In this document: piece by piece, positions 12,919 to 63,795 of the stretch
Numbering within the stretch: position 1 is the stretch's first letter
Layout of the letters: each line of letters begins with the position of its first letter
Source of the DNA: Psammoneis japonica
Taxonomy: Eukaryota
Assembly (NCBI GenBank): GCA_008632985.1
Contig: QPGO01000022.1
Span: forward strand, 372,001 to 436,000
Direction: 5' to 3'
DNA: 64,000 bases
The notes under the pieces: generated by a model
What the model saw: only the letters and a program-made list of their open reading frames with translations
Told to the model about the DNA's origin: nothing
Databases searched by the model: none
Program-made: the position numbers and the translations under genes

Positions 12919-14314
12919 GAATGGCAAGCGTTTCTTTCGGACGTGAACCGCTACTTTTCATCAATACAGTTAGCATGGCCCCACCATTTTGGAAAGTATG
13001 GGAAAAAGATCGCGACACGACCGAGAGCCATGCTCTCAGCTCCAATTGGCGCGAAAAAGATCGCGACACGACGACGGAGAGACCTTCACGTCATCAGAGA
13101 TCGCTCGCATCGCTCGCTCGATGGGGTCTTCCTTCTCACCGACCCGTGAGATGAGGAGTCAGTCTCTGCCGCATGCACAGGCTCACGGTGGAGAGTGACA
13201 GCGGGCACCCATGATGACAACAAAAGTTGTCGTTGCTCAAACTGCCCAGCCATCCCCGTTCTTGGTTGGCACATCTTGAGAAGTTGTCCCGGTGAACCAT
13301 GTGTTTTCTGGCACACTGGCTGGAATCCCAAAGAACTTTCTTCTCCCCCCAAAGCCATCCAGCTCTGTGCTTGGCATTTTGGAGAAGGTGATTGTGTTGC
13401 AGAAGTTTGCTGCCATCATCAATGATGAAATCACTGCATTGCAAAGGGGGGAGCCAGCAGCCGTGGACACAAAAGAGAGAGATGACACACAACAACAGCA
13501 CGAGAGGAAGCAGGCTCGCACATTCTGGGGCACGCTGCTGGGTGTGATCTGGCACATCATGACTTGCAGTCAGAGGCAAAGAAATGATCGTGGCCCTGGT
13601 CAACTCCCAAGGGTTTTGACCACAGTTTGCATGTTTGTGGGGCAGCATTTTTTGCGTGTCAGTCATGGCGAGAAACGACAAGAGACTGCGCTGAATCACA
13701 TGATTTGGTCAACTGCGTGAGCCACTGCAGATGTCTCTTGTTGCTTTTGTTTCATGCCTGGGAGTGTCATTTTTGTCAGAGGTGCTCCAGCCATGCAGGT
13801 GACATCAAAGTGGGAGACATGATGTTGACAAGTTGCAGTGAGCTGCCATCACACTGCAAGTTCGCTGTCTGTGACTCAACAGAAAGCTGCCTTGTCTGAC
13901 TGGCAGTTGCACCCACGAAAAAAGTTTGGTGTTGTGAGACTTTGCACAATGACTTCTGTGAATCTTTGCAGCATTTGCCTGGTGGTTTTGATGGCCCAAC
14001 CATGTGCAAAAGAAGCAAAAATGTCAGTTGAAGAAAGTCAATGTGTGTGGAGAACAGCACAGCAGGGTTCCCCAGCAATGTTGGTTGTGAGCACACTGAG
14101 AAAACATTCAACAGGGTCCTTGGCAGCAGTGCTTTGCCCCTTGGCCACATTCCTCATCATCTTGGCAATGGGCAAGCTTTTGCTTGGGCCCTGCAATTTT
14201 GTGTTGAAGAAGGCACTCCATTTCAGGGTTGCAGTGACACAAGCTCACTCCAGTGTGAGCAGAGGTGGCACATGACATGCTTTCATGCATTTGTGCTTTT
14301 GCAGGTTGTCCAAA

Positions 14315-14315
<1 letters not shown>

Positions 14316-14375
<60 letters not shown>
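14316..14375. repeat. (CA)n microsatellite next to an N; ~75-bp duplicated flank
   Basis: About 30 CA units. 'ccagtgtgagcagaggtggcaca...caaaccacac' occurs at ~14250 and ~14378 on either side of the N at 14376. Confidence 0.9.
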
Positions 14376-14459
14376 NGCCAGTGTGAGCAGAGGTGGCACA
14401 TGACATGCTTTCATGCATTTGTGCTTTTGCAGGTTGTCCAAACCACACACACACACTTC

Positions 14460-17400
14460 TTGCAGTGATGAAGCTTGTGGTGACCATGAAGAGCATGTCA
14501 CCACAGACCTTGAGAACCTCCCCGGGCAAGCCATCCTCAACTTCATGCCAGCTGCAGTGAGGGTTGCATCATTGTTGAAGTCCAAATGAATGATTTGAGA
14601 ATCCTTGGTGTCAAAGACAAAAAGTGGTCTTGTTGCCTGGTCTTCAGCAACACTCTGGGAGCAAACCAAGGTGACATGGCAGCAGTGTGGTTGAAACAAT
14701 GATGGGTGCCCAAAACAACAGCTCAAGCCTGCAACATGACATCCAGCTGGTGTGGCTGATCCCAGATGCCTTCTGTGCCAACAGGAGGCAATGACAACAC
14801 AGCTCACATAACATCAATGGAAGCTCACAACCAAAAGTGAAGGAGGGCAATTGGCAGAGCACATCTCATGCTCCAAGTGCAGCAAGAAAGGGCACCATGC
14901 CTCAGACTGCCCTGAGAACAGTGCAACACCAAATGAGTTGACCCAAAGAAGCAGGAACATGTGTGAACAACATGATGGTCAGCAAGAACATTGGGCTCCA
15001 ATCTTGCATGCTTGCAGAGGGGACCAAGAAACAAGAGACAGCCAACTGCAGGCACACATCCAGCACAAGCAATCCAATGGCACAGCAGACCTGAACTGGG
15101 TGCTGCTGGACAACTGGTCAACATGTGTGTGTTTGTCAATGTAGACATGCTTGACAATGTTTGTGAGTCAGAAAAATGGCTGGACCTTCATGCTGCCACC
15201 CCAGTCACTGGCACCAACCTTTGAGGAACTTAGCTTGGATGTGAGAAAGTCTGGCACCCACCCAGATGGAACAACAAACATCTCTTCACTGGCCAAGGTC
15301 AAAGAAAAACACCACATGACTTTTGACAGCCAGCAGCGCAACACATTCATTGTGCACAAGCAAAAGGGCAACACCCAGAGGAATTCAAGAAGCAGCAGCC
15401 AAGAGGGCTGCACTTCTGCAAATCCAGGATGGGCTCCTGCAAATCAGGCCCAGCAGTTGTGCTGGTGAGCATGGTTGCAGAGAACAAGACCAAGCACTTG
15501 GCATGGGACATCAGCATGCACAGCTTGCAAGGACAGCTCAGAAGATGATTGGCAGGCCCAGTGTGTCAGGCAATTCATGGGTGTTGTCCACAACAAGAAA
15601 GTCACAAATTGTCTGGTGAAAAACATGTGGCTGCTGTAGAGAGCATGAGATTTCAGCCCAGATCAACCAAAGAAAAAACTGTCAACAAACAACACCCTCC
15701 CCTTGAGTTGTGCAACAGCTGTGCTGATGTCTTCCAACATGATGACAAAGACCAACAGACAACACCATTCATGATGTCAACACAGCCATGCTGCACATCA
15801 AGTTTTCAGCAGCACAGTCAAGTGTGCATTTGGCCAGAAGATCAAAACACCACTGGAGAGCATTGCCCAGGTGCAAAAGGCATTCAAAATGCCATGTGTG
15901 GATTTGTCATCACCACAGCCCATGTGGAAAGCCAATTTGAGCTGGTGTGAGCAGGGCTGGCAGAAATGAGGCATCAACATCAATGCTGCATCAACAGAGG
16001 AACATGTGGCAGAAATCAAGTGTGCTGCAATTGCATTGTCAAGGACCATGGTCATGTGCTTGGAACACAGTGCACCGCCCCAGCGCCAAGCACTTTTTCT
16101 GTGCTGGATGATCTTTGAGATGGCATGCTGGGTTGTCTTCTGGCTGAACTGCATTGTGGCAAAAGGGTGGCGTGTCTGATTGATGCAGTCCATGAGTGAT
16201 TGTTGCCAGCCTTGAGGAGGTTGGTTGCAGCAAACATGGCCAGCTGGAGTTCAGGCAAGGTGCAAAGACACATGGATGAGGACCATGACAACAGCATGGC
16301 CAGCCACATGATCAGCATCATTGCCTTGCACCCAAATGACAACACCCAAGTTGGGCACTTCTTCACATGAGCCTTGAGAGTTGACAGGATGATGCATCAG
16401 CCAAAAGCCCAAGGATTGGCAGTTTCTCTGTCCCTGTGCCTGCTGAGGTTGTGACTTGCTGGGCCTGCCACACTGCAAGGTGCAGCAAGGCACAAAAAGG
16501 CATCAGCTTTCAAGACTGAGTTGGGGGCCCATTCTTGAGGATGAACAAGAGTTTCTGAGAATTCTCAAAAAGTGATTGGGAGGGTTTGAACTCCAAACCT
16601 CCACCCAATTGTGGCAGTGATGACAGTGACTGCAACCCTGACAAAGACCCCAATGTTGAAGATGGTGCTTCTGTTTGTGGACCAGACAGTGATGACAAGA
16701 GACAGCCACACAGAGAACAGCTTCAACAGGGTGCTGAAACCCTGGACAACCCAACCATCACCTCACAAAATGGTCTCAATGCAGGAGCGGTTGATTGTGC
16801 CACAGCTGACAAGGACCCTTGAACTGCAAGAGTGGACCAAAAACTGCCAGCAACTGCGTGAGTGGACCACAACACTGCCACAAGCACAGAGGGGTGTGGT
16901 GGGGTGCTGCAGTTGCACAGGACCAAATCATGGATGATGCAAGGGGCCAGGAAACAGCAGATGCTGAGATGAGCCAAAACAACAAACCAGATGAGAAGAG
17001 CCAAGCTGACAATGCTGACATCCAGAAGGACATGCAGAAACACAGGGAATGTGCACCAGGGCATGCAACCTGCACCAAAGGAGGTCACAAGAGCTTGTGA
17101 CTGCCTGCACCTCAACCTGCTCAATGTGGACTGCATCCCACATCCCATGAAAAAGGGCTTGAGACATTTGGACAAAAAAGGGGGAAGTGGCCATCATGAA
17201 GGACAGACAGAGCAACTGGAGGCAGTGGAGGTGTCAAAAGCACCCACAAGCACTGGTGGCATGGCCACAACTGCAAAAAAAAAGAGGGTGCTGCAGCACC
17301 TCATGTTCTTGAGACAGAAGCAGTGCAGCCCAGCCAAGGGACATGGACATGTTGGTGGACACCCACAGAACACACAGACATTCAACCAAGGAGGAGGATG

Positions 17401-18720
17401 CACCTGTCCCTGCTGCACATGTTGAGTTGGCTCTGCTGCCCTGCATCATGTTGATGTGCATGAGGTTGGAAGACATGTGATGACAGTGGACTTGCCAGGA
17501 TCCAGGAAGGTGATGTGTTCCTTTTTTTGCTGGAAGGAGTCATGGTCAATGCACTCCTTTTCAGCTCAATCATGACAACAAGAAGCACACAAAATGTGTG
17601 GTGCATGAATCCATGGAAAGAAAGTGTCACATGTGAAACTCAACAAGGCACTGCATGGCATGGCACAACTGCCAGGGGCACCACTGGCACACTTTGGCAG
17701 CTCATGAAAATTCTCAAGAGCTGGGGCTTCAAGCAAAACCCGCGCAATCTGTGTGTGGCAAGTGAGGTGATCAGTGGGCAGCAATGCACCACCTGGTGGC
17801 ATGGATGACCTGAAGCCATTGCATGTGGGTGCCAATGAGGTGGTTCCAAGTGACACTGATTCAAAAACTTGAACAGGAACATGAAGGGCATTGGTTTGCA
17901 CTTGCCATCATGAGGGGAGACCTCTGTGAGTGCCTTGGCATGACAGCTGACTGCAGTCATGTGAGGAAGGGAAAGTCAAAAACTGATCATTTCTGGCACA
18001 GCATCAATGAGCTCATCATTGACTCACCACCAGCATGATGACTGGAGATGGGGAGAGCCCTGCTCCAGCAGCAAGTTGTTTTTGTTCAACATTGAAAAGA
18101 AGAACCTGGAATGCTCAACATGGCCAAGCAAAAACTTTTGACTTGATCATGGGTTTCACAAAAGACCAGGCCTGACACTTGCAGGTTGCAAAGTCATTCT
18201 TGTGATCCCAAATTTGTGACTCTGGGGCTGACAATTCAAGAAACTTGCACAAAAGTTGCAAGTCATCTGCAACCCATGAAAGGTCTGGGTGCTGCTTCTC
18301 CAAACAGAAGCTGAGCATGTGCAGCAGCCAATGGAGAACAGAGAGCAAGCCAGCCGAAAGAGTGCACAATGGCATGCCAACTTTGCTGTAAACCAGGAAC
18401 TTTGTGGAGAGTCAAGAAGGATTCAAAATGTGGGAGAAAGTGCTCCATCAAGAAAATGAGAGCACTGTCTCATTGGAAAGAAATGTGCAGATGTCCAGCA
18501 CAAAGAGAGCCAAGCACATCAATGTGCAACATTCTGGCAGCACTCTGAAGGGTGATTTGACAATGAATGTGGCCCAACGACCAAAACCATGCTTGCCAAC
18601 CATTTCATGAAGCCACTTCAGGGACTGCTGTTTGTCAAAATCTGGAAACTCCTGATCATCAACATGTGGACAACAACCTCCTGTTGACAATGTAGCCATT
18701 GCAGGTGGGAGTGTGCTGGG
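14460..18720 (+). mobile_element. Degenerate Ty1/Copia (CoDi-like) LTR retrotransposon internal region
   Basis: Domains in Copia order: zinc knuckle CSKCSKKGHHASDC (~14870), protease WVLLDNWST (~15100), integrase 'EEHVAEI' (~16000), RT 'LQHLMFLRQKQC', 'KALHG' and 'ECLGMTADCS' (17280-17960), RNase H 'STKRAKHINVQH' (~18500), then 'ggagtgtgctgg' as the likely PPT/LTR start. Confidence 0.85.
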
Positions 18721-20167
18721 AGCAAAAAAGAGCATGTGCACCTGGAAGCTGCAAAAACTGCAGTGGCAGGCGGCAGATCTGCCAGCTGGGAATCCACAAC
18801 CCAGGAAGCTGGTGAGGCAGATTTGCCAGCAGGAGAAAATGGCTCTGAAGACATGGTGCAATGAACAAAGCTGCACTTGAAAACAAGAACAACAGAAATG
18901 AGAGTGTTCTCAATGTCTCAGGCAAAACAACAAGACTGCAAGAGCAGAAAGAAAGAATGGAGCCAGCTCATTCTAAAACAATTGTCGACTCTGCAACACC
19001 CCCCATCAGAGTGCACAGCATCTTTTCTGGGAGAGTTGTGGGTGATTTTACAAATGATCTGAGTCCAGGAGTGGAAGTGGAGACAGTTGTTCCAACAGCC
19101 AGCACTGATGGTGTGCACACATGCATCACCCTCTCACCTCCAAGTTGTTGCCATGATGATCGCACAGCAAGGCGTCAATGTCTTGGAGTGCAGATGGTCA
19201 GTCAGAGCTGGATGGACCCAACACTGGATTGTCAGGCATCATTGCCTCAACAAAACTGGCAACAAGCTTGCAGTTTGTCATCTTGGTCATCTTTGCACTC
19301 ATTTGCTTAGCTCATCAGCACATGTTGGTGCTCCTCCACTTTCAACTTGGCTCATCCAACAATGTCAACATGGCCATGGTGATGACTGGGTTTTCTTTGC
19401 ACAAATCTTCCGTCTTCATTTTCCATTTCATATGAGACATTCACATTGTTGAGCAGCATGACTGTGGTCCTTGTGCTGTGTCGGTCACTGTGCATTGGTC
19501 TTTGCCATTGTCTCTCTCACAGTTGTGAATGAAAGACTTTTGAGAGTGCGGCAACAAGTTGAATCTCAAATCTCCATGGCAAAAGAGAGAGGAGAGGTTT
19601 CTGAAAAAGGTTCCCGGTCCGTTTCAAACCTTCAAGGAAAATCTCGTTAAGGTGGCTTCATGCCAACGAAAGCTCACGATCGTCAGCTTGAAGCTGACAA
19701 AGGTCACTCCTCAAAAAGCGAGTCGCAGGGACTTCAGAAGACTTTTCTTCGCACGCTGATGCGTTCAGTCATGCCTACATTGACACTTACGATCGTTAGC
19801 GTCACGCAAACGAAGAGGACGATGAACAGATCGGCACTGCGTGTTTTGAAGAGGACTCCTTCAGCAAATGGGCACTCTCAAGCTCTCGTTAAGTGGACAT
19901 GATGTCCTTGGCGGCTGCTGTGATCATTCAATAATTCAACAAGGTCTCTTCTTGAAGCCTTATGTTATTTGTGCTTCAGGTGGACCTTTCATTTCGAGTT
20001 TATTGTTCTGTCGATGCAATAATGACCACGAGTTTGAAGTTGTACAGCACTGCCAGTACTGCCCTGCTTCTATCATTGCATCGATAGTACCCGTGTAGTC
20101 GTACACTACACATTAGAGTAATGAATATGGCCACAGACAAGTCGAAAACATCCGCAAGAATCTTTCT

Positions 20168-28416: not shown

Positions 28417-29310
28417 TGAGCTTCAAGGTATGGGATCAATGATATTTCTGTTCGAGTTACTCTCGAAGTAGTACGACTACGAGGTACAGAAAAAAACGCT
28501 GTCAGGAAGGTCCGTGTCGAATGAAACCTCCGGCACTCTGCAACGACTCACAAGCTTACGGTACAACTTCGCAAATTGAAAAAAAGCATAATGCATATAA
28601 TGCAAGGAGTAGCAACAGGTAGCCCTTCCCGAGTTACCGTGCGTACTAGAGGGCCTACTCTATTTGCATCGGTGACAAGAATGAAGTCTCATGATCGATC
28701 ATGACGCATCAAACCCAAAACGTGGAAAGAAGCAAAGACTGACGTATGACGGACGGACTGTGACACCCAGAAAGACCTACGGTGCCGGTAACCTCATCAC
28801 GCAGCCGCCATGACATTCTGGCCAATTCGGCGTCGGCGTCCGTGGCCGCATGGACTTTCTCATCCACGCCGTTTGCATGTATGTTGAACACTGCCTCTCC
28901 CCAGATGTGACCCCTGCCAAGGCCATGGTCCTTTTGGACCTCACCAAATTTTCAACGAGGCCTCCCATGTGTGCTGACACCCCCTGGCTGCCGACACACG
29001 CAATCTCTGCCAAGGAACACAGGAAGGAGACAAGATGCAACCACAGAGACAGCCAAACTGTGGTGCTGCTGGTGAGTGATTTGGGTTGATCTGAGGTTGA
29101 CAGTGATGGTTGAGATTTGAATCTGACTGTCTGAGAATCTTCCCAACATTGTGGCAGATCTTTTCTGTGCGTGAGATTGACGAGCACTTGTGCTGCTCCA
29201 CGGGTGTTGCCTTTGGCAATCTGTGGTGATCAGCACAGCCCCCCCCCAAAAAAAAAACATGCTGCCCCCTCCTCCTCTTCTTTGACCTTGCAAGCAAAGA
29301 GCCCAGCATC

Positions 29311-32300
29311 TGCCTCTCATTCTCTTCTGCCTGTGCTCGTGTCATCACAGCTCCAGTGCGTGCCTGGGGAGTCCACCACATGGTTGTCCCCATTTCCCTT
29401 CAGTGCTCTGTCAGGCCATGGCCTTGTGCTGCAATGCTGAGTTCTGGGTCATGCTTTCTGTTTCAATTCATTTGTTTTGTGAGCCGATCAAGCAAGCCTC
29501 ATCTTTTGTTCCCGAAAGGATGTTTTTCTCGCTTTCCCGGCATTCTTCAGGCTCTTTCAAACACACCAGCTTTCTGCATGTGCATGACCAAAAATGATTT
29601 CACCAAATCCAACCATGGCATCTCTCAACCCTTCAAAGGTCACCCCCATGTCTGTCACAGAGATCTGCCATGAACTCCAAGCACATGCCACTCCACCACA
29701 CGTCCACACGCCCCTGCTGAACATGCTGTGTGCAGATGCCACACATGATCTGGATCCGTTCTTTGAAGACCCAGAGCATGCTTGGCCCAAGAAGAACTTT
29801 TTGGACTTGTTCCATGAGTTTCTCATCAATCAAGCAATTTCACCTTGCACGGCAGTCCCACGGACATGCAGTCCACCAAGAAGACAACTCTGGATGAAGC
29901 TCCTTTTCGCATTGCAGACCCCCTGCAAAGCCTCGTGCAAGTCATCTGTCACCCCTGAAAGTCTCTCATCCATGACAAAGTTGACTCTTCAGAAACATGA
30001 GCAATCTCCACACATTCTCATGTCGCTGCAGCATGTCCACATCAGCCCCAATGTGCAGCGGAGTTGTGGAGACTGGAGAGAGTTCTCTCTTGATCCACAC
30101 AAGCCAACAACACCGTCTGCACCCCCATCCTCAATGACTGTGACATCCTCTTCTGTTGGTGTGAATGATCTGGGTGCAGCACTCAACAAGTTTGCATTGA
30201 GCCAAGCTCCATCTTTGACTGCTGCTGGGAAGACTCCAGGAGGTGCTCTTGCTGCATCTGTTGCATCCAAGTGCCTGTTCAATCCCAACACCTTGCCCAA
30301 GGATGTCAGTGAACAATGTGATTGCAAGAAAAACGGCAATGTCACGCATCATGCACATGGATGCCATCACTGTGTCAATGCTTCTGACCACACCATTCTC
30401 AATGATGGTGCTCTTTTCATCATGAGCTTGACTCCCAATCAGAAGATGTTGTTCAGGGAGCCACCTGTGTGTCATGATGGCCCTCTGGCAGGAATTCATG
30501 CATGGCACCAAAATTTTCAATGTCACTCATTTGACTCTGATGCCACGTGCAACCTTCATGGTGCTTCACCAAGACTCATGGCGGTGAGAAAGGATTCACA
30601 ATCAGCAATGGCAATGACAACAACTTGCCACAACACATGTGTGTGCACTGCAAGGAAGCTGAGAGTCCTCTTCACAAGATTCTCTCATGAACAGACATGT
30701 TCCCCAAGAACAGCAAGTGCCATTGCATTGTTGCTTTGTGCTGTGGTGATGGATGCAAGGCCCTCAAGCAGATTCCATGTGAGAATCATCTGGCTTTCTC
30801 AATGATGAAGAGCTGCTAGATTGGCAGACTCCTGTCTTGTGCAAGGAAACCTGTCGTTGGCCAACTGACACATCTTTTTCAAGGACTTTCTGCAGCTGCA
30901 CACTTGTGTTGCCTCTTTGATGTGATGAACTCCACTTTGGATGACCCACGTGAGATGACTGTCTTCATCAAGACCACCAAGCATTCCAAGTCATTGTCTT
31001 GTGCCACATGCAGTCAAGGCAAGTCTCCAGCAATGCTCAAGAAACACATGCTGGATGCTTGCAGATTGTTGAGACACTGTCTGATTTTCTGCACCAACCT
31101 GACAGTCCTGTTGTCTCCAGTCACACCAATGTTTGCACAATCCATGCCACAAATGGGAACACAAATGAGATGACACCCATCAATGTGTCAGTGCTTTGAC
31201 GATTCCAGAGGTGCCCCTCATCAAAGCTGATCCCAAGGATGCACCCAATGATGCCATCAGTGATGACACCTTCAATGTCCCCCATGTGATGAATTGGCTG
31301 GCTGGAGTTGATGTGCAACCCACTGATGAGGGTTGTCTCCTCCATCATGCCTGCTCTGCTCCTGTCTGCAAACTCAAAACTGTCCCACAGGAAGCATCCA
31401 AGAAGCCCTGCTTGGTTTGTTCTGGTTGCCATTTGTTTGATGACTGTCTTGCATTGACTGATGCTCAACACATCAAAGGATTTCAGACTCACTTTTGTCA
31501 GCTCTTGAAGCATGAGACAGCCATGCATGCTGCAACATTCCAAGGAACTCAAGGTTCATTGCTGTCTGCCAAGGAAGTTGTGGATGACCCACCTGATCCC
31601 AGCACCACCAAGTCTCTGGATTTTCAATCGGGTCATTGCAGCCAGTTTTGGATCTGTTGCACAGCCCATTTTCTCCCAACCAAGACAAGACAAATGCAGG
31701 TGGGGTGACTGTGAAAAAGGAACTGCCAGTCTTGTCATTTGCCACTGCTCTGCCTCTTTCTCCAATGACAAAGCAGGGCAGCAAGTGATTCCCAGTGTTG
31801 TCCATGAAACTGGATGTCCATGCCCTGCCAGATGATGATCCAGCTGCAAATTCTTTAGATCAGGGGAGGGAAGAACAACCCTCTGTCAATCCAGAAGAAT
31901 CACTCAACTTTGACCATGACATGGATCATGATGATGGAACAGGAGCAATCAATTTTGTCTGAGCAACTCCAATCACACCCACTGTTGCTTTTGAGTCTAT
32001 GAAGATGGAAACTGACCGTGAATTTTTTTGTGATCAACGCTGTCAACTTTGCTCCGAATGAACATTGTGCTCAATTGGATGCTGGTGCTGACATTGCTTG
32101 TGCTGGTGAATGAGACCTCCTTCACCAACACCAAGGTTTTACACCAGATGACCCATGTCCCCTTGCTGTCAACCCAGCTCTTGGTCACAAAGTGATGCCA
32201 GTTGGCTTTGGTTGTCTGCACATTCCAGCAGAGAAATCTCAAGGCTTTGTCAAGATCCGAGCATGTCATCACCCACAGATTTGCTCTGCTCTGGTTGACG

Positions 32301-35300
32301 AACTGTCATTGCCAGGCAAGAATGGCACATCACTGCCAATCCTGCAATGTTCTTGGCTGCATCCTCAAGTTCCATGACTTGGGCACCTGCAAGTTTGTGG
32401 CATGACATTGGTTGTGCAAGAGTCAGGATGTTGTCACGCATGGACAATTGATCAATGGCAAGTGCTGCACTCACCCCCTTGTGCCTCTGACATCCCATGA
32501 TGCTCTCAATGAGTCAACAGAGCATTTGAAAGCAAGCAACCCATCCTTTGTTGCTGAAAAGTGTGAGGCAGTTGCAGTGCACATGATTTGAACACATTGT
32601 GGGCACCAAAACAACCTGTTGGCTGCACGAGGAGGAATGCAGAGCAATCCCCCGGGTCTGTCAAGACATTCCTTTTGAGAAGCATGCTGAGAAGCACACC
32701 CCAGTTCAGCCCCTCAAGGCCAGCATGGAATGCCTTCTGTGGCATCAATGACTTGGCCATCCCAGTGACCATCATCTGCATCATGCTCTCATGAGCATGT
32801 TGCTGGTGTCCTGAAGTTTGCTCTTGGCACATCTCCCCTGGACACCTGTCAAACATGCATGCAAGCCAAGCAGACCAAGGAACCCACTGGTCCATGTGCT
32901 GCCTTGACCACTGCTCAACCACATCAAGGTCTCATGGCAGACTCATCTTTCTCTGGATTGCTCGCCAAGAACAAGAAATGTGCCACTGATTGTGTTGGTT
33001 TGAATGGCAAGACATGTTGAACAACAACACCTGTGATCACTTTGCAAAACATCTCCATGGTGACACTTGTGCTTCCAAGGCTGCTCCTTTGAATTGGACC
33101 CACCACTTTCTAGAAGAGCACTTGCCAAAATGCCCAGACAAATGTGTTTTTCTGGATCAAGGTGGTGAGTTGTGTGGCAATCCGGTGGTTTGGCGACTTT
33201 TTGAGGATGACTTTCACCATGTAATTTGTCCTGCTTGAAAAGATGCTTCAAATCGGAGTGGCCCAGTGCAACAGAGTCATTTGACCATTGCCAATGCCAT
33301 CCAAGCAATGTTGACAGGTGCAGATTTGCCCACCACATTTTGGCCCTTTGCATCAAGAATGCTGTGCCATCCCAAGGACAAGAAGCTGACCCAATTGCTC
33401 TTGCTGCTCATTGGAAGGATGACTTCACTGCATTTGGAAGGCAAAGTTCAAGACCAAATCTTGCAAGGGGATTTTCTTGGGTTGTCTTTCAGGTGTGATG
33501 GAGAATGTTCTGTGGCATCATCCTGAGACATCTTGGGTCAAGACTGCCAAGCACACAAGTTTTGATGAAGGGATGAATGTCCCAGATCATGATCCCATTC
33601 CTTTGAATGTGGTGCATTTCGAGTGCACTCAGGCAGGTGGCCCCATGCCAGCTGAGACCAAGGAAACTGGGGTGGACTGGCTTCACTTCCTCACTGGTGG
33701 CCCTCTTGTCAAGACCATCATGTGTGCAATGAAGGGTTTGTTCCTGGATTCTAACTTTGAGATGACTTTGACTGCCAATGAATTGCATCAACATGTCCAT
33801 GTCTTGGATGTTGAATGTGGTGCTCCCACTGCTCACCCATTTTCTTCATTGAAGGCAACTCACAACAACATCTTGGGCACATGTGTTGTCTTGCTGGTTG
33901 GTGATCAGCGTGTTTTCACCACTGATGATGCAATCAAATGATTGCAGCAGGCTTGTGATTTGGGCAAGACACACTTCAAGATTGAATTTGCCCTTGAACA
34001 ATGTCTTGCTTCCAAGGCTTTGCAGTGTGCTCTGGTGGAGCACAATGTCTTCACTCCTGCTCCAGATCCCAATGAAGAACACATTCCAGAGCTCATGTGT
34101 GCAACAGCTGCAACACAACATTGTCCTGATGCCAACTTTTTGGTTCTCAATGAAGTTGAAGAACTTCCTCCTTTTTATGTTGATTGTGACAATGGCATCA
34201 TGAACATCCATGCAATTTCGTCTCATGCTGTTGCTCCAGAAGAGCAAGCTCTGGGTGCTTTTGCTCAGAATTGTCTCAAGGAGTTGTCTGCATGGCCAGA
34301 GTGTTGTGCCAGCGAGTTGAAGCATTTGGATCAGTTCCATGAGCTCGGCATGTTTGGTGTGCCAATCAAACACCCCAAGGATGCAATTGTTCTCCACCCC
34401 AATTGGCAGCATGACCTCAAGCACGATGGCACAAGATGATCTTGCAAGTGCGGTCATGGTTCACCTCATGCTGTGCCTGCACTTCACCAGCTGCAATTGA
34501 CACACTCGTTGTGTGTCAAGCAACCAATCTAATGCATGTTCTTCATGCCAGTGGCTGCAATGAACTGTTGCCTTTTTGGCAGTGATGCTCAAGATGCACC
34601 TCTGCAAACTCCCCCAAACCCTCCTGCCCTGGTTGCTGGTTGCAACCAATCCAATTCATGTTCTTCATGCCAGTGGTGGCAATGAGCTGTTGCCTTTTTG
34701 GCAGTGATGCTCAAGATGCACATCTGCAAACTCCCCCAAGCCCTCCCATCCTGGTTGGTGGTTGGTGGTTGCCAGTTGGTGGTTGGTGTTTGGTGGTTGC
34801 CAGTTGCCGGTTGCCGGTTGCCAGTTGGCAGTTGGCAGTTGGCGGTTGCCAGTTGCTGGCAGCCAGTTGGTGGTTGCCGGTTGGTGGTTGGTTGTTGGTG
34901 GTTGGTGGTTGCCTGTTGCAAGTTGCCATTTGCTGGTTGGTGGTTGGTGCTGGTTGCCGGTTGCTGGTTGCAGGTTGGTGGTTGGTGGTTGCTGGTTGCT
35001 GGTTTGTGGTTGGTGGTTGCCGGTTGCCGGTTGCCGGTTGCTAGTTGCCAGCTTCTGGTTGCCAGTTGCTGGTTGGTGGTTGCTGGTTGCCTGTTGGTGG
35101 TTGCCAGTTGCTGGTTGCTGGTTGCCAGTTGCTGGTTGCTGGTTGTCAGTTGCTGTTTGTTGGTTGCTGGTTGCAGGTTGCCAGCTGCTGGTTGCTGGCT
35201 GCTGGTTGTTGCCGGTTGCTGGTTGCCGGTTGCTTGATGCATGTCTCACTTTGGCATCAAGTTGGATGTTGGAGCATGGTTCTGACAGCGCAGCATGCTC

Positions 35301-36885
35301 TCCAAGGACACCCAGAAGCCAGGGTGCTCTGGGAGGACCACATCAACAGCACACTGACTGATGCAACTCTGTTGTTCTGCAATGCTGTGCATGACAAGTG
35401 CATTTGCTCTGCTGCCTTTGAAGGACACAAGATCTTGTTGTTGCTGGTGCTGCAGGTCAATGATTTCTCCATCACGCATCCTGAAAAATCCATTGTGACC
35501 AAGTTCTGTGATGAGATTGGCAAGGCTCTCCAAAATCCCTCACAGAAGCTGCTCCACCTTTCAAGCATCTTGGACTCATTGAAGAATTCAACAGTGTTGA
35601 CATTTGCCAGCATGATGATTTGACTGGCGTTGCCATTCACAGCCATGTCAAGAGAGTGTGCATGTTGCACAGATGGGCAAAACCAACTGCAGATGAACCT
35701 GCAGCTGATTGCAAGGCAACCCTGATCCTGGTTGATTGCATTCAGGAATTGCACACTGCTGTTGGCCCTGCTGAAGGTGTGCCAGAGCATGCTGTGCTTG
35801 AAGAGGCAGCTGGATTTATGTTGTGCACCACTTGGTGAATTGTTGCACGTGCATGTTGGGTGCAGATTGGAAATTGGACATGCTGTTGCCACCTTTTCTC
35901 AAGTTCTCTACATGCCCTGCAATGGTGCATTGTGGTGCTTTGAAAGAGGTGTTGCCAAGTGTCTCTGATGGACCAAGTGTTGGGAACTTATCTGCAAGAA
36001 ACCCACGCAAGATCCAACCCTGCCTTTGCACCCTTTTGAGCCCTTGATTCACAAACCCACTCTTCCATCATTTCCTGCTGCCAAGTTTGCCCAGCAGTTG
36101 CTTGCTTTTTTGGATGCTGCTTGCAGAAATGACCTTCACAACACTGCAAGTCAATGACGGGATGCAGTTGCATGTTGGCCAGTGCAGCTGTCCTCTCTTT
36201 CTGGTGCAAGACTCAGTCGGTGACTGCTGCAAGGTCCAAGGAAGCAGAGTTCCATGCTGCCAGCACCACCGCCAAGCATGTCTTCCCTTGTTTGTTGACA
36301 ATGAATTGGCAATCAAGATTGTCAACCATTCCATTCCCACTGAGTGCTTGTGACACATTGATGTCCAATTTTTGGCAATCCAAGATTGAAGGGAGGTGGA
36401 AAAGATTGTCACACGGCACATGTCCCTGGCATCACCAATCCCAGTGATGACCTTGCCAAGGCTCTGGGATGGGTGCTTCATGCCCACCATGCTTGACGCA
36501 TGATGGGAGACACTGCCATTGACATTTTTTCCATGGTGGCCTCCCTGCTGCAGATTGCCCCCTTGTTTGTTGCATTTTGGGCTTGGATGCTTTGTTTTGT
36601 CCTGTGGTCTGTTCTCCTGCATCATCCCTGTTCTTTGGATTAACCTGTGTTGTCTCCTGCATTTGGACATTTTGCAGATCAGGGGAGGCTCTCAGCCCAA
36701 CTGTCATGCGATGGACAGAGATTGCACATGGATGATGACCCAGACCATTTCTGCAGATGAGCACACAGATCTCTCTGAGATTTGCCTCTCATTCTCTTCT
36801 GCCAGTGCTCATGTTGTCACAGACCTGGTGCTCGGGGAGTCTGCCACATTGTCATCCCCGCTGGTGCCCTTTGGCATTCTGTCAG
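29311..36885 (+). mobile_element. Degenerate Ty1/Copia LTR retrotransposon with both LTR remnants
   Basis: Direct repeats at 29311..29414 and 36783..36885. PPT 'aggggagg' at 36681. Integrase 'LDQGGELCGNP' (33152), RT 'QHALQGHPE...LWEDHIN...HDKCIC...LQVNDF' (35290-35470), RNase H 'EAEFHAA' (36241). Confidence 0.85.
34752..35233. repeat. Degenerate 7-bp minisatellite (GGTTGCT/GGTTGCC/GGTTGGT/AGTTGCC) inside the Copia RT region
   Basis: About 480 bp of period-7 repeat, preceded by a ~110-bp tandem duplication (34520..34630 and 34642..34751). Confidence 0.9.
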
Positions 36886-38418
36886 CACTGGCAGCCCTTT
36901 TTTCTGCAGCCTGGGGTTTTTGCCCAAGATTGCCCACTCGGCCCCACTTTCTCCAGTCTCATCATCCCAGCTCTCTTGTCCTCCCTCCACTCAACCAAGA
37001 TGCCTTGACAATGCCCACATGCTTCCTCACCTTGCTCTGTCATCCCCTGGCTCTTGCATGATTGACCATCTGCCCTCCCCCCCTCCCATTTGGCAACACA
37101 CTTGGTCACTCCAAGACCCAGGGCCTCTCACCTCCACTGGCACCACACTCACTTCCTCTTGGCCAACCCATCAGATCCTGCAAGTTTGCTTCAGCCTTTT
37201 CATCTGACAGAGATGCCCCCTTTGTCAAGCCCCCCCCCCCCCCCCCCCAGCTTGCTGCTTGCCTTGCTGACAAACAAACCCAAAGCAAGCTTTTCTGTTG
37301 ATGCTCAGCCCACCACCCACCACCCACCTCCTCTCTGCCAACATCTGGCTGCTGCAACTGCTCATCTTTTCAAGATCCACCAGACCTCTTCCATGGGACC
37401 TCGTCTTTTGCCAATGCCTCACAGACCACACCCTTCACTTGCATCTCCCAGCTTGTTGCTGCATGATCCCTCCCTCTCCCAATCACCACTGCCCAACTCA
37501 CCTCCTTGTCTCCCAGCTTCTCTTGGCAATGTGGGCTGTGGAGACATGTCTGTGTCACTTTTCCATTCCTTCCCTCCTCTGTGTCTCCCTCACTTGCTCA
37601 TTGTGCCTGGCCAAGCACCGCAACACATCCTCAGCCAGTGACCGGCAGCACTTCTTCCTCCTGGCTGGTCACTCCACTTCTCTCTCCTCTTGGTCCACCC
37701 CAAACTCCTGCCTCCTCTCTCTGTCTCTTTGTGCCATCTTCTGGCACCTTGCCCCTTCCCTTTTTTAGCTTGACTCTTCTGCCCGTGAATCTTTTTTCTC
37801 TGCTTTTGCTGACCACATGCTGGTCTGGCTCAATGCACCCACCTCTGTCACCACACATGCAATGCTCCACCTTTCCTCCACAGCCACTCCAACCTTCAGC
37901 AAACCCCTTGCCTCTCTTGCCATTTCCAACCCTTTCCAGCCTTTGCCTTCATTGTTCCCTCTCTCGTGCCCACCTGGCCAACCAGCTTTCCTTCCTTCTC
38001 CTGCCAAAGCTGGGCTTGCCCCCCCCCCTGGATGTGTTTGTTGCTCTGCTTGTCCATGTGGTTGCCACGCCCTTGATCCCTTTGAAGATCACACTTTTTC
38101 ATGCACCAAAATGCACAAAAGCCCTCCATCCAAGCATGCAAGAAACCCCCTCTGCACCGTCATCATTGCCGCTCTCTTGCCCCCACTGTGCTGGCCTCTG
38201 CTGCCCTCAACAGAACATCTTGCTTGAGCCAATTGGCCCCTTCCTTGTTGCCCCTTGGGGCATCTTGCTGACATTGGCGCACAGCAGCTCACGGACCCCC
38301 CCCCTCCCCCACGTGCCTTCTGCTTGAAATTTTCTTGCTGTTGACACCACAGCACCTCCAGTTCCTCCCCCCCCCACCCTGCACCACTGTATTTTTGGTG
38401 CAAATCAATGTGTCAGTG

Positions 38419-51669: not shown

Positions 51670-53410
51670 CCACCTTTGTGCCACATGCTCAAGTTGAAAG
51701 AGCACCCTGTCAGCCCTCCTTTCTCCCTGTGGATTTTCTTCTAAAAATGCCAAGCATGTGACATCTGTGTCAAGTGTGCTGGCACCAAATGGAGCCAATC
51801 AAGGATCAGGGCAAATGTCTTGGAGTGCTCCATCTAAACGAGGGACACCACCCCACTGCTCATCCTGTTGCCCCCCCCNCCCCCCCCCAGCCAGCCAACC
51901 CAAAAGGTCAAGGACAATCTGCATGTCAGGGAATGTGCACAATGGTGCCAGGGCAGGCTTTCTGGCACTGGAGCTCAGGGCCAATCTTGCTGTGCAACCC
52001 CACAAGCTCTTGCTGAGTGTGCATGTGTTTCAACCACCCGAGCATTGTTGCCCCCCTCCCAGCCAACCAACCAACAACATGGGCAAGAATCTGTGTGTCA
52101 GGGAGCACGGGCTTTCTGTCACTGAAGATCATGGCCAATCTTGCTGTGCAACCCACAAGCTCTCTTGCTGAGCACATCTCCACTGCTGAGCAGGAGCACA
52201 GCACCCCAGCCACTTGGTGGGCTTCTCCAGCCAGCTGCTGGCTGAAAAAAGTCTGCCTGTCAGCACACTTGTGTGTTTTTCCAGGTGGGCACAACTTCTG
52301 CACAAGGCAAAAGATGTTGAGTTTGTCCAGTGTTTGCTGAATCTAGCCAAAACCCCCAAATGCACTGATTGACAGACTCTTTCAGTGCAAACTCTGCACA
52401 AAAGACAACTCCCTTGGGCCAGCCAGCCACCATCACCCAAACTCTCATTTTCCGCCAACAGCTCTTGCTGGCCACTGTGTGTTGGGCACCAAATGTTCAA
52501 AATGTGGAAGCAGCACAATTTTTGCATGTGGCATTTTTGCCATGCCCTTTGACCTGCAGCGTGGGGCCACCCCCCAGGCAGCTGTGCCACCCCCCATGCA
52601 GACAGCACCAATGGTGTGTGCAGTTGCTCAGCACCAACAGTGACCGAGATGTCAGCGGCCAGCCAAAACCCCCAAATGCATTGATTGACAGACTCTTTCA
52701 GTGCAAACTCTGCACAACAGACAATTCTCTTGGGCCAGCCAGCCACCATTGCCCAAACTCTCATTTTCCACCAACAGCTTTTGCTGGGCACCAAATGTGA
52801 AAAATGTGGAAGCAGCACAATTTTTGCATGGCATGTTTGCCGTGCCCTTTGACCTGCAGTGTGGGGCCACCCCAGGCAGCTGTGCCACCCCCCATGCAGA
52901 CAGCGCCAATGGTGTGCAGTTGCTCTGCACCGACAGTGACCAAGATGTCAGTGGCAACAATGTGAAGTGGCGCCGCCAGCAGCAGCAGCAGTGGCAGCAG
53001 CAGCTGACCCCAACCATGCAGCCGCCTTGTCAAACAATGTGCCCCCCACTGCTCAGTGGGCCACTTGCCCTGCACTCTTGTGTGCACCACCTTTGCCTCC
53101 AGCAGCTCCTGGCCCCAACAAGGTGTCGTTTGTGAGGGTGCACTCTGGGTGCTGCGCTGCTGGTGCTGTGTGAGGCCGCCAACCAGTTGGTGGCATGTGC
53201 TCCAACTCCTCTGCAGTTGGCTGACCAGAGTGCTTGCCATGCCACAGCCACCCAACATGGCAATGGTCATCCAGTGCCATGACTTCTGACACCACAAGGT
53301 CAACCACAACCCACCAGACCACAACATGGTCAACCCCAGCAGCTTGCCTCTCCACTGGAGCAGCAACTGGGAACTTCTTGGAAACAGGCTCTCTGTTGGC
53401 TGCTCTCTGC
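51670..53410. mobile_element. TpA/CpG-depleted degenerate repeat block of unknown class with internal tandem duplication
   Basis: Almost no TA. ~316-bp tandem copies start at 52345 and 52661; a shorter repeat occurs at ~51979 and ~52133; N at 51879. Confidence 0.7.
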
Positions 53411-53797
53411 CGCACTCTCTACCGGCAGCTGCTCTCTACTCTCTACTCTCTGCTAGAGTAGAGTAGAGCTACCACTAGCTCTGCGGTGCTCCTGCTCTAG
53501 CTGCTGCTAGTAGCTGGCAGAGTAGAGAGACTCAGCCTGTGTCGAGAGCGCGTGCTGGCGGTGCGGCAAGCGGTGCGTGTGCGCACCGTGCGTAGTTTGG
53601 AAGTTCGTGGTGCAGAACGCAAACACGGAACAACATGGCACATGGCTGCTGGCTGCTCATTGCATTTGCATCTGCTGCGTTGCAGTTGTTGGTACGGTGT
53701 ACGGTAGTTTGAATTTGCGTTGAATGCCTTTTTTAGTCATTGATATAAGTTGTAAGACACGGATATCGAGAATTTCCATTGATTCGCTGCAACAGCA

Positions 53798-55270: not shown

Positions 55271-55729
55271 GCTTTCACGGTTTTGTAAACTGCAGCGTAC
55301 TGTCGGAGTAAGATTCTAATGAGCACCTGCAATTGAAACTGCACCTCTCGTTCTTGTTCGCTACTTTTTTTAGAGCCTCTCTACCTATATGTTTTGTCTA
55401 GCTACTTCTAGCTAGAGAGTAGAAGGTACAAAAAAGTCATGTGCCGTAAAAATGGATACCTCACGGTTGAATCGAGGTCGAGAGAAATTACAAAGAGGAA
55501 GAGTTTGAAAAAACACTGTACAGGACGAGCGCGGAGGAAATTTAGATATTTAAATGCAGTTAAAGCAGCATGCAGTACTAGAGCGAGGAGCGAGCGACGA
55601 GCATCGAAAACCTGGTATTTTACGGTCCTACCGTATTTCTTCACCATTCTACCGGTACGGCAGAGCAATTCAAGAGTGTACACACCCCGACTTGCTAATC
55701 GTTGCACAGTTAAATCGCCATACCTCATC

Positions 55730-61449: not shown

Positions 61450-63795
61450 GGAAAAATCCTGAACCACATTCTCCCCTAAAACTCCAACCACCAAAAACCG
61501 AGGGGTCGGAAGCGCACTTTTGGGAGCTCTTTTTCTCTGCACAAAAAACACGCGTTTCGTCGACTCGACCACAACGACCTTCCGTTCTTCGTCCCCCACA
61601 CCACCTGACGCATCCCCGCCTGCCACATCTGATGCGGCAGTCCCTCCTGTAATGGCCGGCACCGTTGCACCCGCTGTCGTTACCCAAACACAGCCGATTT
61701 GCCATCCGGAGGATTTGGGCTTCTGTTCGCCGGATCCTGTGCCTGAAACACAAACACAGCGCCGTGATTGGTCTACTCCTGTCATTGCGTCCCCGGAGAA
61801 ACTGGATTCTCGTTCGCATTGCAGTGTGGTGGAAGGCACTGATGAGCCTTCTCTCAAACGGTCTGGGGTGCAGCTCCGAAACCAGGTCAAAAAACAAAAG
61901 CAACAAACCGACGTCAAGGTTCAGTGGGCGTGGCAGAGGAGCATCTGTGACAGGAGGCATGGTGACAACCTTTCTCAGGATGATTGTTCCCAAGCAGAAC
62001 CTTGTCTGTCTGGAGGTGATTGAGACTCACCCAGAGCCCAGCGGAGCCAATCGGAGCCAACAACAAGTGTCAAGATGAACCGCAGCAACATGTGAAGGAG
62101 GACGCAGCTGATGGAATGCGGGCAGAGAAGGTGCCGGCATGCAAAGTGGCAGCATGGCTGTCGACAAGGCACCAGTTTTTAAGGTCTAATGGTGACAAAC
62201 ATGGTGAGCATTTGCCAAAAGCACGTTGCTGCCTGCCTCCATTTTGGCAACATGCAAAAACAGCATGTTGCACATCACATGCAGAACCCAAACGGCGAGA
62301 GTGGCCTCTCATGGAATTGCACACAATGACCCAGTCCTGGAAAATGGAGCAGTGTCCAAGTCACATGCACCATTTGAAACCTTGCCAAGTCACCTGCAAA
62401 CAAATGCCAATTCGCTGACCTCTCCAACTTGAAACTAAAAAACTGTGAAAGCATGCCTGCCATCTGGTTGTCATCAGGTTTCTAATTTGCAGAGAGCTGC
62501 ACAATGTGTCTGCACATTCTAAAGATTGGACTGCACTTGAGAGCCAACCAAGAGGCACCATTCATGTCCATTGATGTGTCGTCCATCAGCAGGCCGTGGT
62601 TGCATGGGTTTCCTGGTCCGCCGTCATCCGTCATCCATTGTGTTCCTTCCAAAGCAAAAACAACAACAGTGTCAACAGCAACTGCAGCAGCAAGGGTGGG
62701 ATTGACAGTGTCGGGCATGCCAGGGGGCCGAAACGCAGGTGCGGCGTTAGAATTCGTGACAGCATCTGTGGGAGGCGGTGGGGCGAGAATGAAAGAAGTG
62801 TGAGTTACAAGCACTTCGTTGTGGACGTCATTGGCAAAAGACAACAACAGTGTCAACAGCACCTGCGGCAGCAAGGGTGGGAGCAACAGCATCGGGCATG
62901 CCAGGGGGCCGAAACGCAGGTGCGGCGTTGGAATTCGTGATGGCATCTGTGGGAGGCGGTGGGGCGAGAATGAAAGAAGTGTGAGTTGTTGGCATTTCAT
63001 TGTGGACGTCATTGGCAAAATGCAATGACAGCATCAACAGCACCTGCGGCAGCAAGGGCAGGAGCAACAGTGTCGGTCATGCTGGGGGGCCGAAACGCAG
63101 GTGCGGCGTTGGAATTCGTGACAGCATCTGTGGGAGGCGGTGGGGCGAGAATGAAAGAAGTGTGAGTTGTTGGCATTTCATTGTGGACGTTGTTGGCAAA
63201 ATGCAGTGACAGTGTCAACAGTGCCTGCGGCAGCAAGGGCAGGAGTGACAGCATCGGGCATGCCAGGGGGCCGAAACGCAGGTGCGGCGTTGGAATTCGT
63301 GACAGCATCTGTGGGAGGCGGTGGGGCGAGAATGAAAGAAGTGTGAGTTGTTGGCATTTCATTGTGGACGTCATTGGCAAAATGCAATGACAGTGTCAAC
63401 AGTGCCTGCGGCAGCAAGGGCAGGAGCAACAGTGTCGGGCATGCCAGGGGGGCGAAACGCAGGCACGGCGTTGGAATTCGTGACAGCATCTGTGGGAGGC
63501 GGTGGAGCGTGCAAACAACAGTGTGAGTTTGCAGCATCTTATTTTGCACGCATCACACCCACGAGAACCGGAATGATGACATCACCTGTTGCATCAGTGT
63601 CATTGGCAACGGTGTCAGCAGGATCGGCGTCCTGGGAAGGCGATGGGGAAGAACCACGAGGCATCATCATGGTCGAGTCGACGAAACGCGTGTTTTTTGT
63701 GCGGAGAAAAAGAGCTCCCGAAAGTGCGCTTCCGACCCCTCGGTTTTTGGTGGTTAGAGTTTTAGGGGAGCTGTGGAACAGGAATTTTTGCTTGT
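61450..63795. repeat. Internal ~125-bp inverted repeat pair (61450..61575 and 63667..63795)
   Basis: 'ctcccctaaaactc.aaccaccaaaaaccgaggggtcggaagcgcacttt.gggagctctttttctc.gcacaaaaaacacgcgtttcgtcgactcgacca' and its reverse complement. Confidence 0.92.
62664..63505. repeat. Tandem array, 181-bp unit, ~4.7 copies
   Basis: Near-identical units with period 181; equivalent ORFs start at 62819, 63000 and 63181. Confidence 0.95.

Follow-up and report, generated by a model that had tools for sequence, protein, structure and literature searches.

Why should a retrotransposon have lost every one of its conserved tyrosines? The question is posed by a stretch of 64,000 nucleotides (nt) of contig QPGO01000022.1 from Psammoneis japonica (assembly GCA_008632985.1, positions 372,001 to 436,000 of the forward strand), which we refer to as the window. 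Positions 14706 to 18690 (+) hold the decayed gag-pol of a Ty1/copia-type retrotransposon of a diatom clade. A first-pass annotation, made from the letters alone, had pointed to five motifs in this element at which tyrosine reads as histidine or cysteine, and had read from them the direction TAY to CAY or TGY. Here we show that these changes are the coding trace of a more general pattern: a bounded conversion of TpA to CpA or TpG that is transition-only, affects both strands, is near completion and is independent of the loss of CpG.

A bounded domain depleted of TpA

The element lies within a domain, 12998..19430 (block 1), that contains 9 TA dinucleotides where 248 are expected (Poisson p = 2e-92) and 53 CG where 381 are expected. 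Expected numbers here and below are taken from the window's own baseline, and the bounds used for counting lie within a few bases of the block coordinates given. In 1-kb windows from 13001 to 19000 the ratio of observed to expected counts (o/e) is 0.00–0.05 for TA and 1.6–2.2 for CA and TG, with GC content near 0.5 and unchanged; outside the blocks TA stands at 0.5–0.9 (0.62 overall) and CG at ∼1. The edge in TA is abrupt: the last TA is found at 12997 and TA is back at ∼19431. The edge in CG is a different one: CG is dense until ∼13290 and sparse from about 13300/13900 on, giving a CG o/e of 0.56 in 13001–14000 and of 0.02–0.08 over 14001–19000. Two runs in block 1 are entirely free of TA, one of 1811 nt (12998–14808) and one of 2751 nt (15638–18388). 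In all, TA loss extends past recognisable gag-pol by ∼1.7 kb on the upstream side and by 0.7 kb on the downstream side.

Three further blocks share this composition. Block 2 (28881..38389) contains 15 TA where 356 are expected and 85 CG where 576 are expected; block 3 (51836..53419), which includes a ∼316-nt tandem duplication, contains 1 TA for 47 and 15 CG for 116; and block 4 (62188..63754), which includes a 181-nt tandem array, contains 6 TA for 51 and 76 CG for 105. The combined deficit of TA and CG is roughly balanced by the surplus of CA and TG: 566 against 638 in block 1, 832 against 846 in block 2, 147 against 163 in block 3 and 74 against 116 in block 4. Host genes between the blocks are unaffected. 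Read in all six frames, the four blocks have tyrosine at 0.04% of residues and the rest of the window at 2.31%, and in the blocks TGA outnumbers TAA and TAG together by 923 to 47. The codon-level view of the first-pass annotation thus captured real tyrosine changes and was too narrow: it is the whole 6.4-kb block, non-coding sequence included, and three blocks besides, that lack TA.

Identity of the element

The identity of the element rests on a colinear match between 14706 and 18690 (+) and a profile of 44 full-length relatives (profile positions 306–1635 of 1653), with domain scores of 51.0, 59.4, 20.6 and 37.5 bits; the second of these pieces spans positions 791–1263, the reverse transcriptase (RT) included, and has an E-value of 4e-20. 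The route to this profile was a phmmer (HMMER) search of the RT stretch 17192–18001, with stops written as X, against 1.84 billion representative proteins, which gave two hits. The better of these, the fragment P0001 (39.9 bits), bears the motif LQYLMFLKQKRCGRIKGRGCADGRKQR and a partial match to RVT_2 (PF07727; 27.6 bits, under the cut-off of 31.6); the second, P0002, matched no family and was not used. Relatives were then collected from P0001 (n=580), and the profile was built from the 44 with a length of at least 1500 amino acids, one enoyl-CoA hydratase fusion being left out. Those relatives that carry names come from the diatoms Nitzschia inconspicua and Fistulifera solaris and are Ty1/copia-type reverse transcriptases. 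The sources name the relatives reverse transcriptase or Ty1/copia-type; we take 'CoDi' to be the label of this diatom Copia clade.

Pfam scans of X-for-stop translations, in three frames of 14600–19401 and in shorter pieces of block 1, found neither RT nor integrase. Intact relatives score only 51–59 bits on RVT_2, and the Pfam integrase domain (rve) was found neither in the element nor in three intact relatives; the clade is therefore a divergent one, which helps to explain why Pfam misses the fossil. The 700 residues between zinc knuckle and RT are colinear with the relatives, at the place where Copia order puts the integrase.

The element has long been dead, as shown by the 24 frameshifts and 9 in-frame stops in a frameshift-aware alignment of 874 codons. 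The three forward frames of 14600–19200 show many stops and nearly no tyrosine. Within the fossil 121 of the 126 stops in the three forward frames are TGA; of the in-frame TGA codons two align to arginine columns and one to a tryptophan column.

The fate of tyrosine and arginine codons

The fate of every tyrosine was counted against the Copia profile, as the first-pass annotation had suggested. None of the 26 tyrosine-consensus columns covered by the frameshift-aware alignment retains tyrosine: 11 read histidine, 3 cysteine, 5 phenylalanine and 7 something else (Ile, Ala, Glu, Lys, Arg, Ser and Val). His or Cys is thus found at 14 columns, while the remaining single-step neighbours of tyrosine are all but missing (Asn, Asp and stop at 0/26, Ser at 1/26). 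The picture is much the same when the count is confined to the 19 columns whose neighbours align well, where His stands at 9, Cys at 3, Phe at 3 and other residues at 4. A plain hmmsearch alignment, which also covers 19 tyrosine columns, gives nearly the same outcome, with His at 8, Cys at 3, Phe at 4, other residues at 4 and no tyrosine kept. Conserved positions at large fared better: 219 of 427 reliable conserved columns are retained, with 10/14 for histidine and 7/10 for cysteine. Of the 19 tyrosine columns 12 read His or Cys; of 355 conserved columns of other kinds 6 do (Fisher p = 6e-14).

All five motifs named in the first-pass annotation are present and align to tyrosine columns of the 44-relative profile, and the direction it gave holds: the relatives carry tyrosine, in 40–44 of 44 at four of the sites. 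The clearest are the histidines of the RT motifs LQHLMFL (CAC at 17297) and KALHG (CAT at 17654) and the cysteine of CLGM (TGC at 17931), all three at columns with tyrosine in 44/44 relatives. In KHINVQH the histidine (CAT, 18530) replaces a tyrosine found in 40/44 relatives and the glutamine (CAA, 18527) an arginine found in 42/44, as had been claimed. Elsewhere the claims stood in part. The histidine of GHHA (CAT, 14896) is real, and its column is only moderately conserved (Tyr 20, Gly 11 and Phe 3 among the 44). The arginine said to have become glutamine at 17294, beside the histidine of LQHLMFL, is not established, since the column of the 'R' is variable (Arg 13, Gln 9, Glu 7, His 6). In DCS (TGC, 17952) tyrosine is one of two native states, the column reading Phe in 26 and Tyr in 18 relatives. 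The statement that no outgroup is needed to polarise the changes is true in a loose sense: the relatives do act as the outgroup.

The genetic code accounts for the two classes of replacement. Tyrosine is the only amino acid with codons starting in TA, and TAY accordingly becomes CAY (His) or TGY (Cys), while loss of CpG turns the CGN codons of arginine into CAN (Gln or His) or TGN (Cys, Trp or stop). Arginine survives at 9 of 29 reliable arginine columns; His and Gln stand at 5 each, TGA at 2 and Cys at 1. This loss fits a change of CpG to CpA or TpG, and the first-pass annotation's view of it as ordinary CpG decay is plausible. One further codon is instructive: TGT (Cys) at 17925–17927 stands where 42/44 relatives have histidine (CAY), a double change from CA to TG that needs passage via TA or CG.

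Relatives in environmental DNA separate TpA loss from CpG loss

As a baseline we used 79 metagenome loci encoding relatives of the element (303,864 nt). The DNA of these loci has a median o/e of 0.66 for TA and 0.82 for CG, with a minimum TA of 0.23, so that the makeup of block 1 is not that of its clade. At the 44 tyrosine-consensus columns of the profile (1868 cells) the loci read 76.0% Tyr, 8.2% Phe, 3.6% His and 2.0% Cys; at the 26 tyrosine columns of the window they read 5.7% His or Cys and 76% Tyr. The relatives, then, do not natively carry histidine or cysteine at these positions, a possibility that the first-pass annotation had recognised as fatal to its reading. With locus L044 removed the baseline falls to 5.0%, against which 14 of 26 columns in the element has a binomial p of 3e-12. 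Likewise, the longest TA-free run in the relatives' DNA outside L044 (303,864 nt) is 431 nt, compared with 2751 nt in block 1.

Locus L044 is itself of interest. Positions 1–2256 of this unrelated metagenome contig have a TA o/e of 0.23 and a CG o/e of 0.81, and include two stretches, of 451 and 556 nt, with no TA. Over the first ∼1100 nt the loss of TA is complete (5 TA in all, of which three lie before position 88); further on it is partial. Two of 16 tyrosines are kept, 5 read His and 9 read Cys (binomial p = 6e-17), yet the locus retains 309 of 399 conserved columns (77%) and 20 of 26 arginines, its CpG is normal and its frame stays open for 643 amino acids. L044 looks like an early, TA-only stage. 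At five profile columns (1145, 1171, 1239, 1261 and 1553) the window reads His where L044 reads Cys, which requires an ancestor with TA.

The converse is also found. CpG is strongly depleted in L051 and L028 (o/e 0.27 and 0.26) and in L079 (mostly 0–4 CG per 200 nt), with TA normal or high; the arginine columns of L079 read Trp at 4, stop at 3, His at 3 and Cys at 2. L044 lost its tyrosines and kept its arginines and its CpG, and so the two losses are separable. Together with block 4, where TA is lost and CG mostly kept, with the differing edges of block 1 and with the converse loci, this shows TpA loss to be a process of its own and no by-product of the decay of methylated CpG; a single process for both losses was considered and rejected, given that each occurs apart from the other. 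Replacement of tyrosine by histidine or cysteine with arginine kept is thus a simple protein-level marker, and it was this marker that flagged L044 among the 79 environmental loci.

Two further loci, on contigs that look overlapping, show low TA in the flank downstream of the relative: L074 (3200–4800) and L067 (2900–4200) have 1–3 TA and 39–47 CA plus TG per 200 nt. These flanks may be further, partly hypermutated stretches.

Both strands and independent hits

Repeats within the blocks allow copies of one sequence to be compared. The five 181-nt units of the block 4 array are 87% alike as DNA and 98% alike in a purine/pyrimidine alphabet; between them they show 10 sites alternating between CA and TG, one between TA and TG, and 9 invariant CG. 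A dispersed 113-nt repeat in block 2 (29302–29414 and 36774–36885) has 7 CA/TG sites; two repeats from outside the blocks, used as controls, show one such site and none. Since CA and TG are two steps apart unless both derive from TA or CG, and CG is kept in the array, the ancestral state there was TA. An inverted repeat (61452–61596 and 63645–63788) proved uninformative: neither CG nor TA has been lost from its near-identical core.

Block 1 is also covered, at 88–99% identity, by contigs of an independent assembly from a public run, with 28 of 70 pieces at 99% or more. Joints between 15358 and 17205 and between 17124 and 18051 occur among these contigs. The run probably derives from the source sample, all runs found being from one sample and one study. 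The contigs differ from block 1 by 138 transitions and 50 transversions; among 40 of these differences are 5 swaps between CA and TG, 4 CG kept in the other contig and 1 change of TA to CA. The contigs may point to further copies of this Copia family.

The two outcomes at tyrosine codons bear on the strand. Tyr to His is T>C and Tyr to Cys is A>G; the window has 11 of the former and 3 of the latter, L044 has 5 and 9. Editing of plus-strand RNA would yield A>G, and hence Tyr to Cys, only; editing of minus-strand cDNA would yield T>C, and hence Tyr to His, only. The presence of both outcomes means that both strands were hit, which excludes either form of editing on its own and points to action on integrated, double-stranded DNA.

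A proposed explanation and its alternatives

We consider it probable that mobile DNA, once inserted and silenced, was hypermutated at the DNA level from TpA to CpA or TpG, and that CpG decay was added to this. The retrotransposon would have inserted, and the whole domain 12998–19430 would then have been hit by mutation acting on double-stranded DNA: TpA would have been turned into CpA or TpG, that is, A to G on either strand, and CpG would additionally have been lost to TpG or CpA, plausibly through deamination of 5-methylcytosine (5mC). We infer that the process may be aimed at silenced mobile DNA, as a genome defence of the kind proposed for the alga Bigelowiella natans. Its chemistry may be deamination of adenine at 5′-TA, to which we give about the same weight as to a modification of thymine.

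The explanation also bears on reading frames. Under the genetic code no sense codon becomes a stop when TA changes to CA or TG, and TAA and TAG are removed. Inactivation would therefore proceed by missense (Tyr to His or Cys, NTA to NCA or NTG) and leave long frames open; this fits the long open reading frames (ORFs) found in the blocks as well as the frame still open in L044. Whether diatoms run such a TpA-directed defence at large is, in our judgement, an evenly balanced question. It would be a DNA hypermutation, a kind of 'inverse RIP' (the reverse of repeat-induced point mutation) that takes A:T to G:C in transposons and silenced DNA independently of cytosine methylation, and it would be shared with B. 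natans by descent or convergence. If so, the defence would be widespread among algae of the stramenopile, alveolate and rhizarian (SAR) group, and its stop-free action would leave long false ORFs that gene predictors report as orphan genes.

Several points weigh against this explanation. It is drawn from end states, and the element is old: besides its 24 frameshifts and 9 stops, 49% of conserved columns have changed. Ordinary divergence is large enough that 12 of the 26 tyrosine columns read neither His nor Cys (5 Phe, 7 other). The skew of 11 His to 3 Cys may partly reflect alignment scoring; the bias is moreover inconsistent, being 5 to 9 in L044. Back-mutation of the element, which the first-pass annotation had suggested, was replaced by a count, because each CA or TG may stem from TA, stem from CG or be native: undoing a single CA or TG step recovers 66 of 208 replaced residues, a mirror rule recovers 30 and a second control rule 22, but with 922 CA plus TG against 444 AC plus GT the count does not discriminate per opportunity. 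The sequencing runs found all trace to a single sample, which may itself be where the window came from. Mobile DNA is established for block 1 alone; blocks 2–4 gave no significant family match. Finally, the assignment of the host to the diatoms rests on one host gene and on the relatives of the Copia element.

The alternatives differ in how much of this they contest. One retains the TpA-directed process and contests its chemical step only: the base acted on would be thymine, converted by a TET/JBP-like enzyme to something of the 5-hydroxymethyl- or 5-formyl-uracil type that mispairs with G. As TpA reads the same on both strands, a T>C on one is an A>G on the other; the end states are identical, our counts fit both chemistries, and sequence does not separate them. 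Thymine modification in dinoflagellates is directed preferentially to TpA, and such a modified thymine is not known to have been reported in diatoms. The only paper on the signature proposes, as a hypothesis in its main text, an ADAT2-like adenine deaminase (Mettrop et al. 2026, bioRxiv 10.64898/2026.01.13.699255). On balance we regard thymine as the somewhat unlikely substrate. We find it improbable that the changes were made before integration, by ADAR-like A-to-I editing of RNA or by a deaminase on minus-strand cDNA. ADAR is not known outside animals. Editing of retroelements prior to integration is well described for APOBEC3 in vertebrates, and ADAR, as summarised in the main text of the B. 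natans preprint, prefers U before the edited A (10.64898/2026.01.13.699255); but either form of editing would give one of the two tyrosine outcomes, and Cys and His number 3 and 11 here and 9 and 5 in L044. Nor would such editing be expected to leave 9 of ∼248 TA, to extend beyond gag-pol on both sides, or to strike the tandem units of block 4 independently of each other, and in B. natans the same signature is reported to arise in DNA viruses that are already integrated (10.64898/2026.01.13.699255).

It could also be argued that no directed process is needed, and that an old pseudogene has been shaped by decay of methylated CpG, by ordinary under-representation of TA and by drift. TA is indeed under-represented across the window (o/e 0.62 outside the blocks), and the element is heavily decayed. 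Against this, TA o/e falls from 0.5–0.9 to 0.00–0.05 within a few bases at 12998 and recovers at ∼19431; tyrosine survival is 0% where that of other conserved residues is 25–85%; the longest TA-free run is 2751 nt here and 431 nt in relatives outside L044; and L044, although mildly diverged (77% of conserved columns, open frame), has lost 14 of its 16 tyrosines. We judge this account very improbable. Least credible of all is an artefact of sequencing, assembly or data handling, or an element that is natively free of TA and CG under selection. The window has two N letters, one in block 1 and one in block 3, and the sequence is known from one sample; yet in 28 of 70 pieces the independently assembled contigs match the block at 99% or more, the pattern is restricted to four blocks with normal sequence between them, and the unrelated contig L044 shows the TA part of it. 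Selection for such a native composition is contradicted by an element that carries 24 frameshifts and 9 stops and has lost invariant residues of the catalytic region.

Further features of the element and the window

Within the element the zinc knuckle of gag (14869..14910 (+), profile columns 366–379) aligns to that of the relatives and has its pattern C-x2-C-x4-H-x4-C intact, with Pfam zf-CCHC scores of 19.0 bits in the full frame and 19.6 in a shorter piece (cut-off 20.8). The RT core (17143..17825 (+)) contains LQHLMFL (His at 17297–17299), KALHG (His at 17654–17656) and WHMDDL. It is followed by the segment CECLGMTADCS (17925..17957 (+)), with cysteines at 17925–17927, 17931–17933 and 17952–17954, and by KHINVQH (18512..18532 (+)), with Gln at 18527–18529 and His at 18530–18532. 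Profile positions 1–305, the N-terminus of gag, have no match in the window; this terminus is missing or disrupted. Where it is expected there is a direct duplication (14237..14456 (+)) with a spacing of 128 nt around a (CA)30 microsatellite (14316–14375). The two N letters, the only ones of the window, lie at 14376, within the (CA)30 array, and at 51879.

No long terminal repeats (LTRs) were detected around the element: searches with exact seeds, blastn and a purine/pyrimidine alphabet gave no direct repeat, and a transition-tolerant local alignment of 12950–14000 with 18600–19700 scored 25.0, compared with 23.3 ± 2.8 for shuffled sequence. The LTRs may have been lost, truncated or changed past recognition.

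The TA dinucleotides that survive are not a random sample of contexts. Counted as half-sites in blocks 1–4, 47 of 62 are preceded by a pyrimidine, against 45% outside (chi-square p = 2e-5, the half-sites being non-independent), and in L044 C is in excess before surviving TA (p = 0.01). There are two readings: the process may prefer TA that follows a purine, or the TA seen today may have been newly made from CA or TG. At 15142 another contig reads CA where the window has a surviving TA.

Blocks 3 and 4 are repeats, and six-frame Pfam scans of blocks 2 and 3 found neither RT nor integrase. In block 2, inspection by eye suggests a second, different Copia-like pol at 32680–34530 (+). Its components are LWHQ.LGHPS, with a weak match to Pfam gag_pre-integrs (15.4 bits, E = 0.016, cut-off 28.4); an integrase-like FLDQGGEL...TTFWPFAS; and WPECCASEL...NWQHDLKHDG, which resembles the N-terminus of RT and carries His at a position that is usually Tyr in Copia RTs. 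The clade profile of the 44 relatives found no match in this segment. Nearby, ∼68 copies of the 7-nt sequence CTGGTTG fill 34751–35234, beside a 122-nt tandem duplication (34520–34764).

The blocks also contain long ORFs, at 29588–30805 (+; 405 codons), 37467–38327 (+; 286 codons) and 52129–52947 (−; 272 codons), none of which matched a family when Pfam was run in six frames. As TAA and TAG are missing, a frame can end at TGA alone; these three are probably chance ORFs that a gene caller would report as orphans.

Long intron-free ORFs are found in the window. One, encoding an XPD helicase (55412–56863), is 74–78% identical to diatom proteins, namely those of Seminavis robusta, Pseudo-nitzschia multistriata and an entry with a truncated label starting in 'Atthey', 64–71% identical to those of Chaetoceros and Thalassiosira and only 44% identical to an entry with a truncated label starting in 'Chlorar'; together with the Copia relatives this gene points to a diatom host. 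An ORF at 12034–12957 (−) directly adjoins the TA-free edge of block 1 and encodes a Holliday-junction resolvase domain of the RusA family (46.7 bits), which is known mainly from bacteria and phages. Block 2 is flanked by two sequences that are ∼58–69% alike (27053–27924 and 38973–39792), and EamA transporter domains are found in the ORF that contains the right-hand one. The pair probably represents paralogous host genes separated by mobile DNA.

Comparison with known systems

Hypermutation of mobile DNA is best known from fungi. Like the blocks described here, sequence altered by fungal RIP shows transitions only, in repeated or mobile DNA, with sharp bounds, with coding capacity destroyed and with similarity searches failing. 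The direction, however, is opposite: RIP takes CpA to TpA (C>T), with a gain of TpA, a lower GC content and newly made stops, whereas here TpA is absent and CpA and TpG are doubled. The RIP signature of excess TpA and deficient CpA and TpG was looked for in the blocks and rejected on these grounds.

Decay driven by methylation resembles the other half of the pattern. 5mC at CpG has been reported in diatom transposons, with DNMT5a as the enzyme concerned (Hoguin et al. 2023, PMC9998398). As expected of such decay, CpG in block 1 has gone to TpG and CpA in mobile DNA and arginine CGN codons to CAN and TGN: 53 CG remain where 381 are expected, and arginine reads His, Gln, Cys or stop at 13 of 29 columns. 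It accounts for the CpG half alone, the edges of the two losses being different in block 1 and the losses occurring apart in block 4, L044, L051 and L079.

The diatom Ty1/copia relatives are colinear with the element from the zinc knuckle to the C-terminus; unlike these intact relatives the element is dead, has no detectable LTRs and has a gag N-terminus that is missing or disrupted. The deaminases APOBEC3 and ADAR of animals offer a parallel in being responsible for context-dependent, transition-type hypermutation of retroelements that is read as defence. Their substrates, however, are single-stranded cDNA and RNA, and the mark is left on one strand; here both strands are marked and repeats other than retroelements are affected too.

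The practical consequences of the pattern concern annotation. The blocks escape both Pfam and repeat annotation, so the content of mobile elements is underestimated; and with TGA the only stop left, long spurious ORFs inflate counts of orphan genes. Some diatoms are genetically tractable and methylation mutants exist. In these, candidate enzymes could be knocked out and the chemistry tested.

The closest counterpart is B. natans. Our literature search found one report of TpA hypermutation that raises GC, namely the main text of this B. natans study, and none on diatoms. In mutation-accumulation lines of this species 231 of 302 new mutations fell in integrated giant-virus and virophage regions, and all but one of the 231 were A>G or T>C, all of those at TpA (Mettrop et al. 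2026, bioRxiv 10.64898/2026.01.13.699255). The same main text describes 124 genomic clusters poor in TpA and rich in CpA and TpG, finds reverse transcriptase and DDE domains over-represented among genes with low TpA, and proposes an ADAT2-like adenine deaminase as a defence (10.64898/2026.01.13.699255). The likeness to block 1 is close: TpA goes to TpG or CpA only, on both strands, in bounded domains that hold foreign or mobile DNA, and block 1 passes the thresholds given in that text (TpA ≤0.43, CpA+TpG ≥1.52, at least three windows in a row) with six consecutive windows. There are also differences. B. natans is a rhizarian (a chlorarachniophyte), whereas the host here is diatom-like and thus a stramenopile; the target there is viral DNA and here an LTR retrotransposon; depletion here is near total (o/e 0.00–0.05), compared with 0.45 in the hypermutable region derived from a nucleocytoplasmic large DNA virus (NCLDV); CpG is lost here as well, and CpG, Copia and retrotransposons go unmentioned in the main text of the preprint; and B. 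natans has the evidence of mutation accumulation, while the window is known from its sequence end state. What is new here is the occurrence of the signature in a diatom-like host, on a retrotransposon and in its end state. A second host with this signature suggests that the process is not limited to one species.

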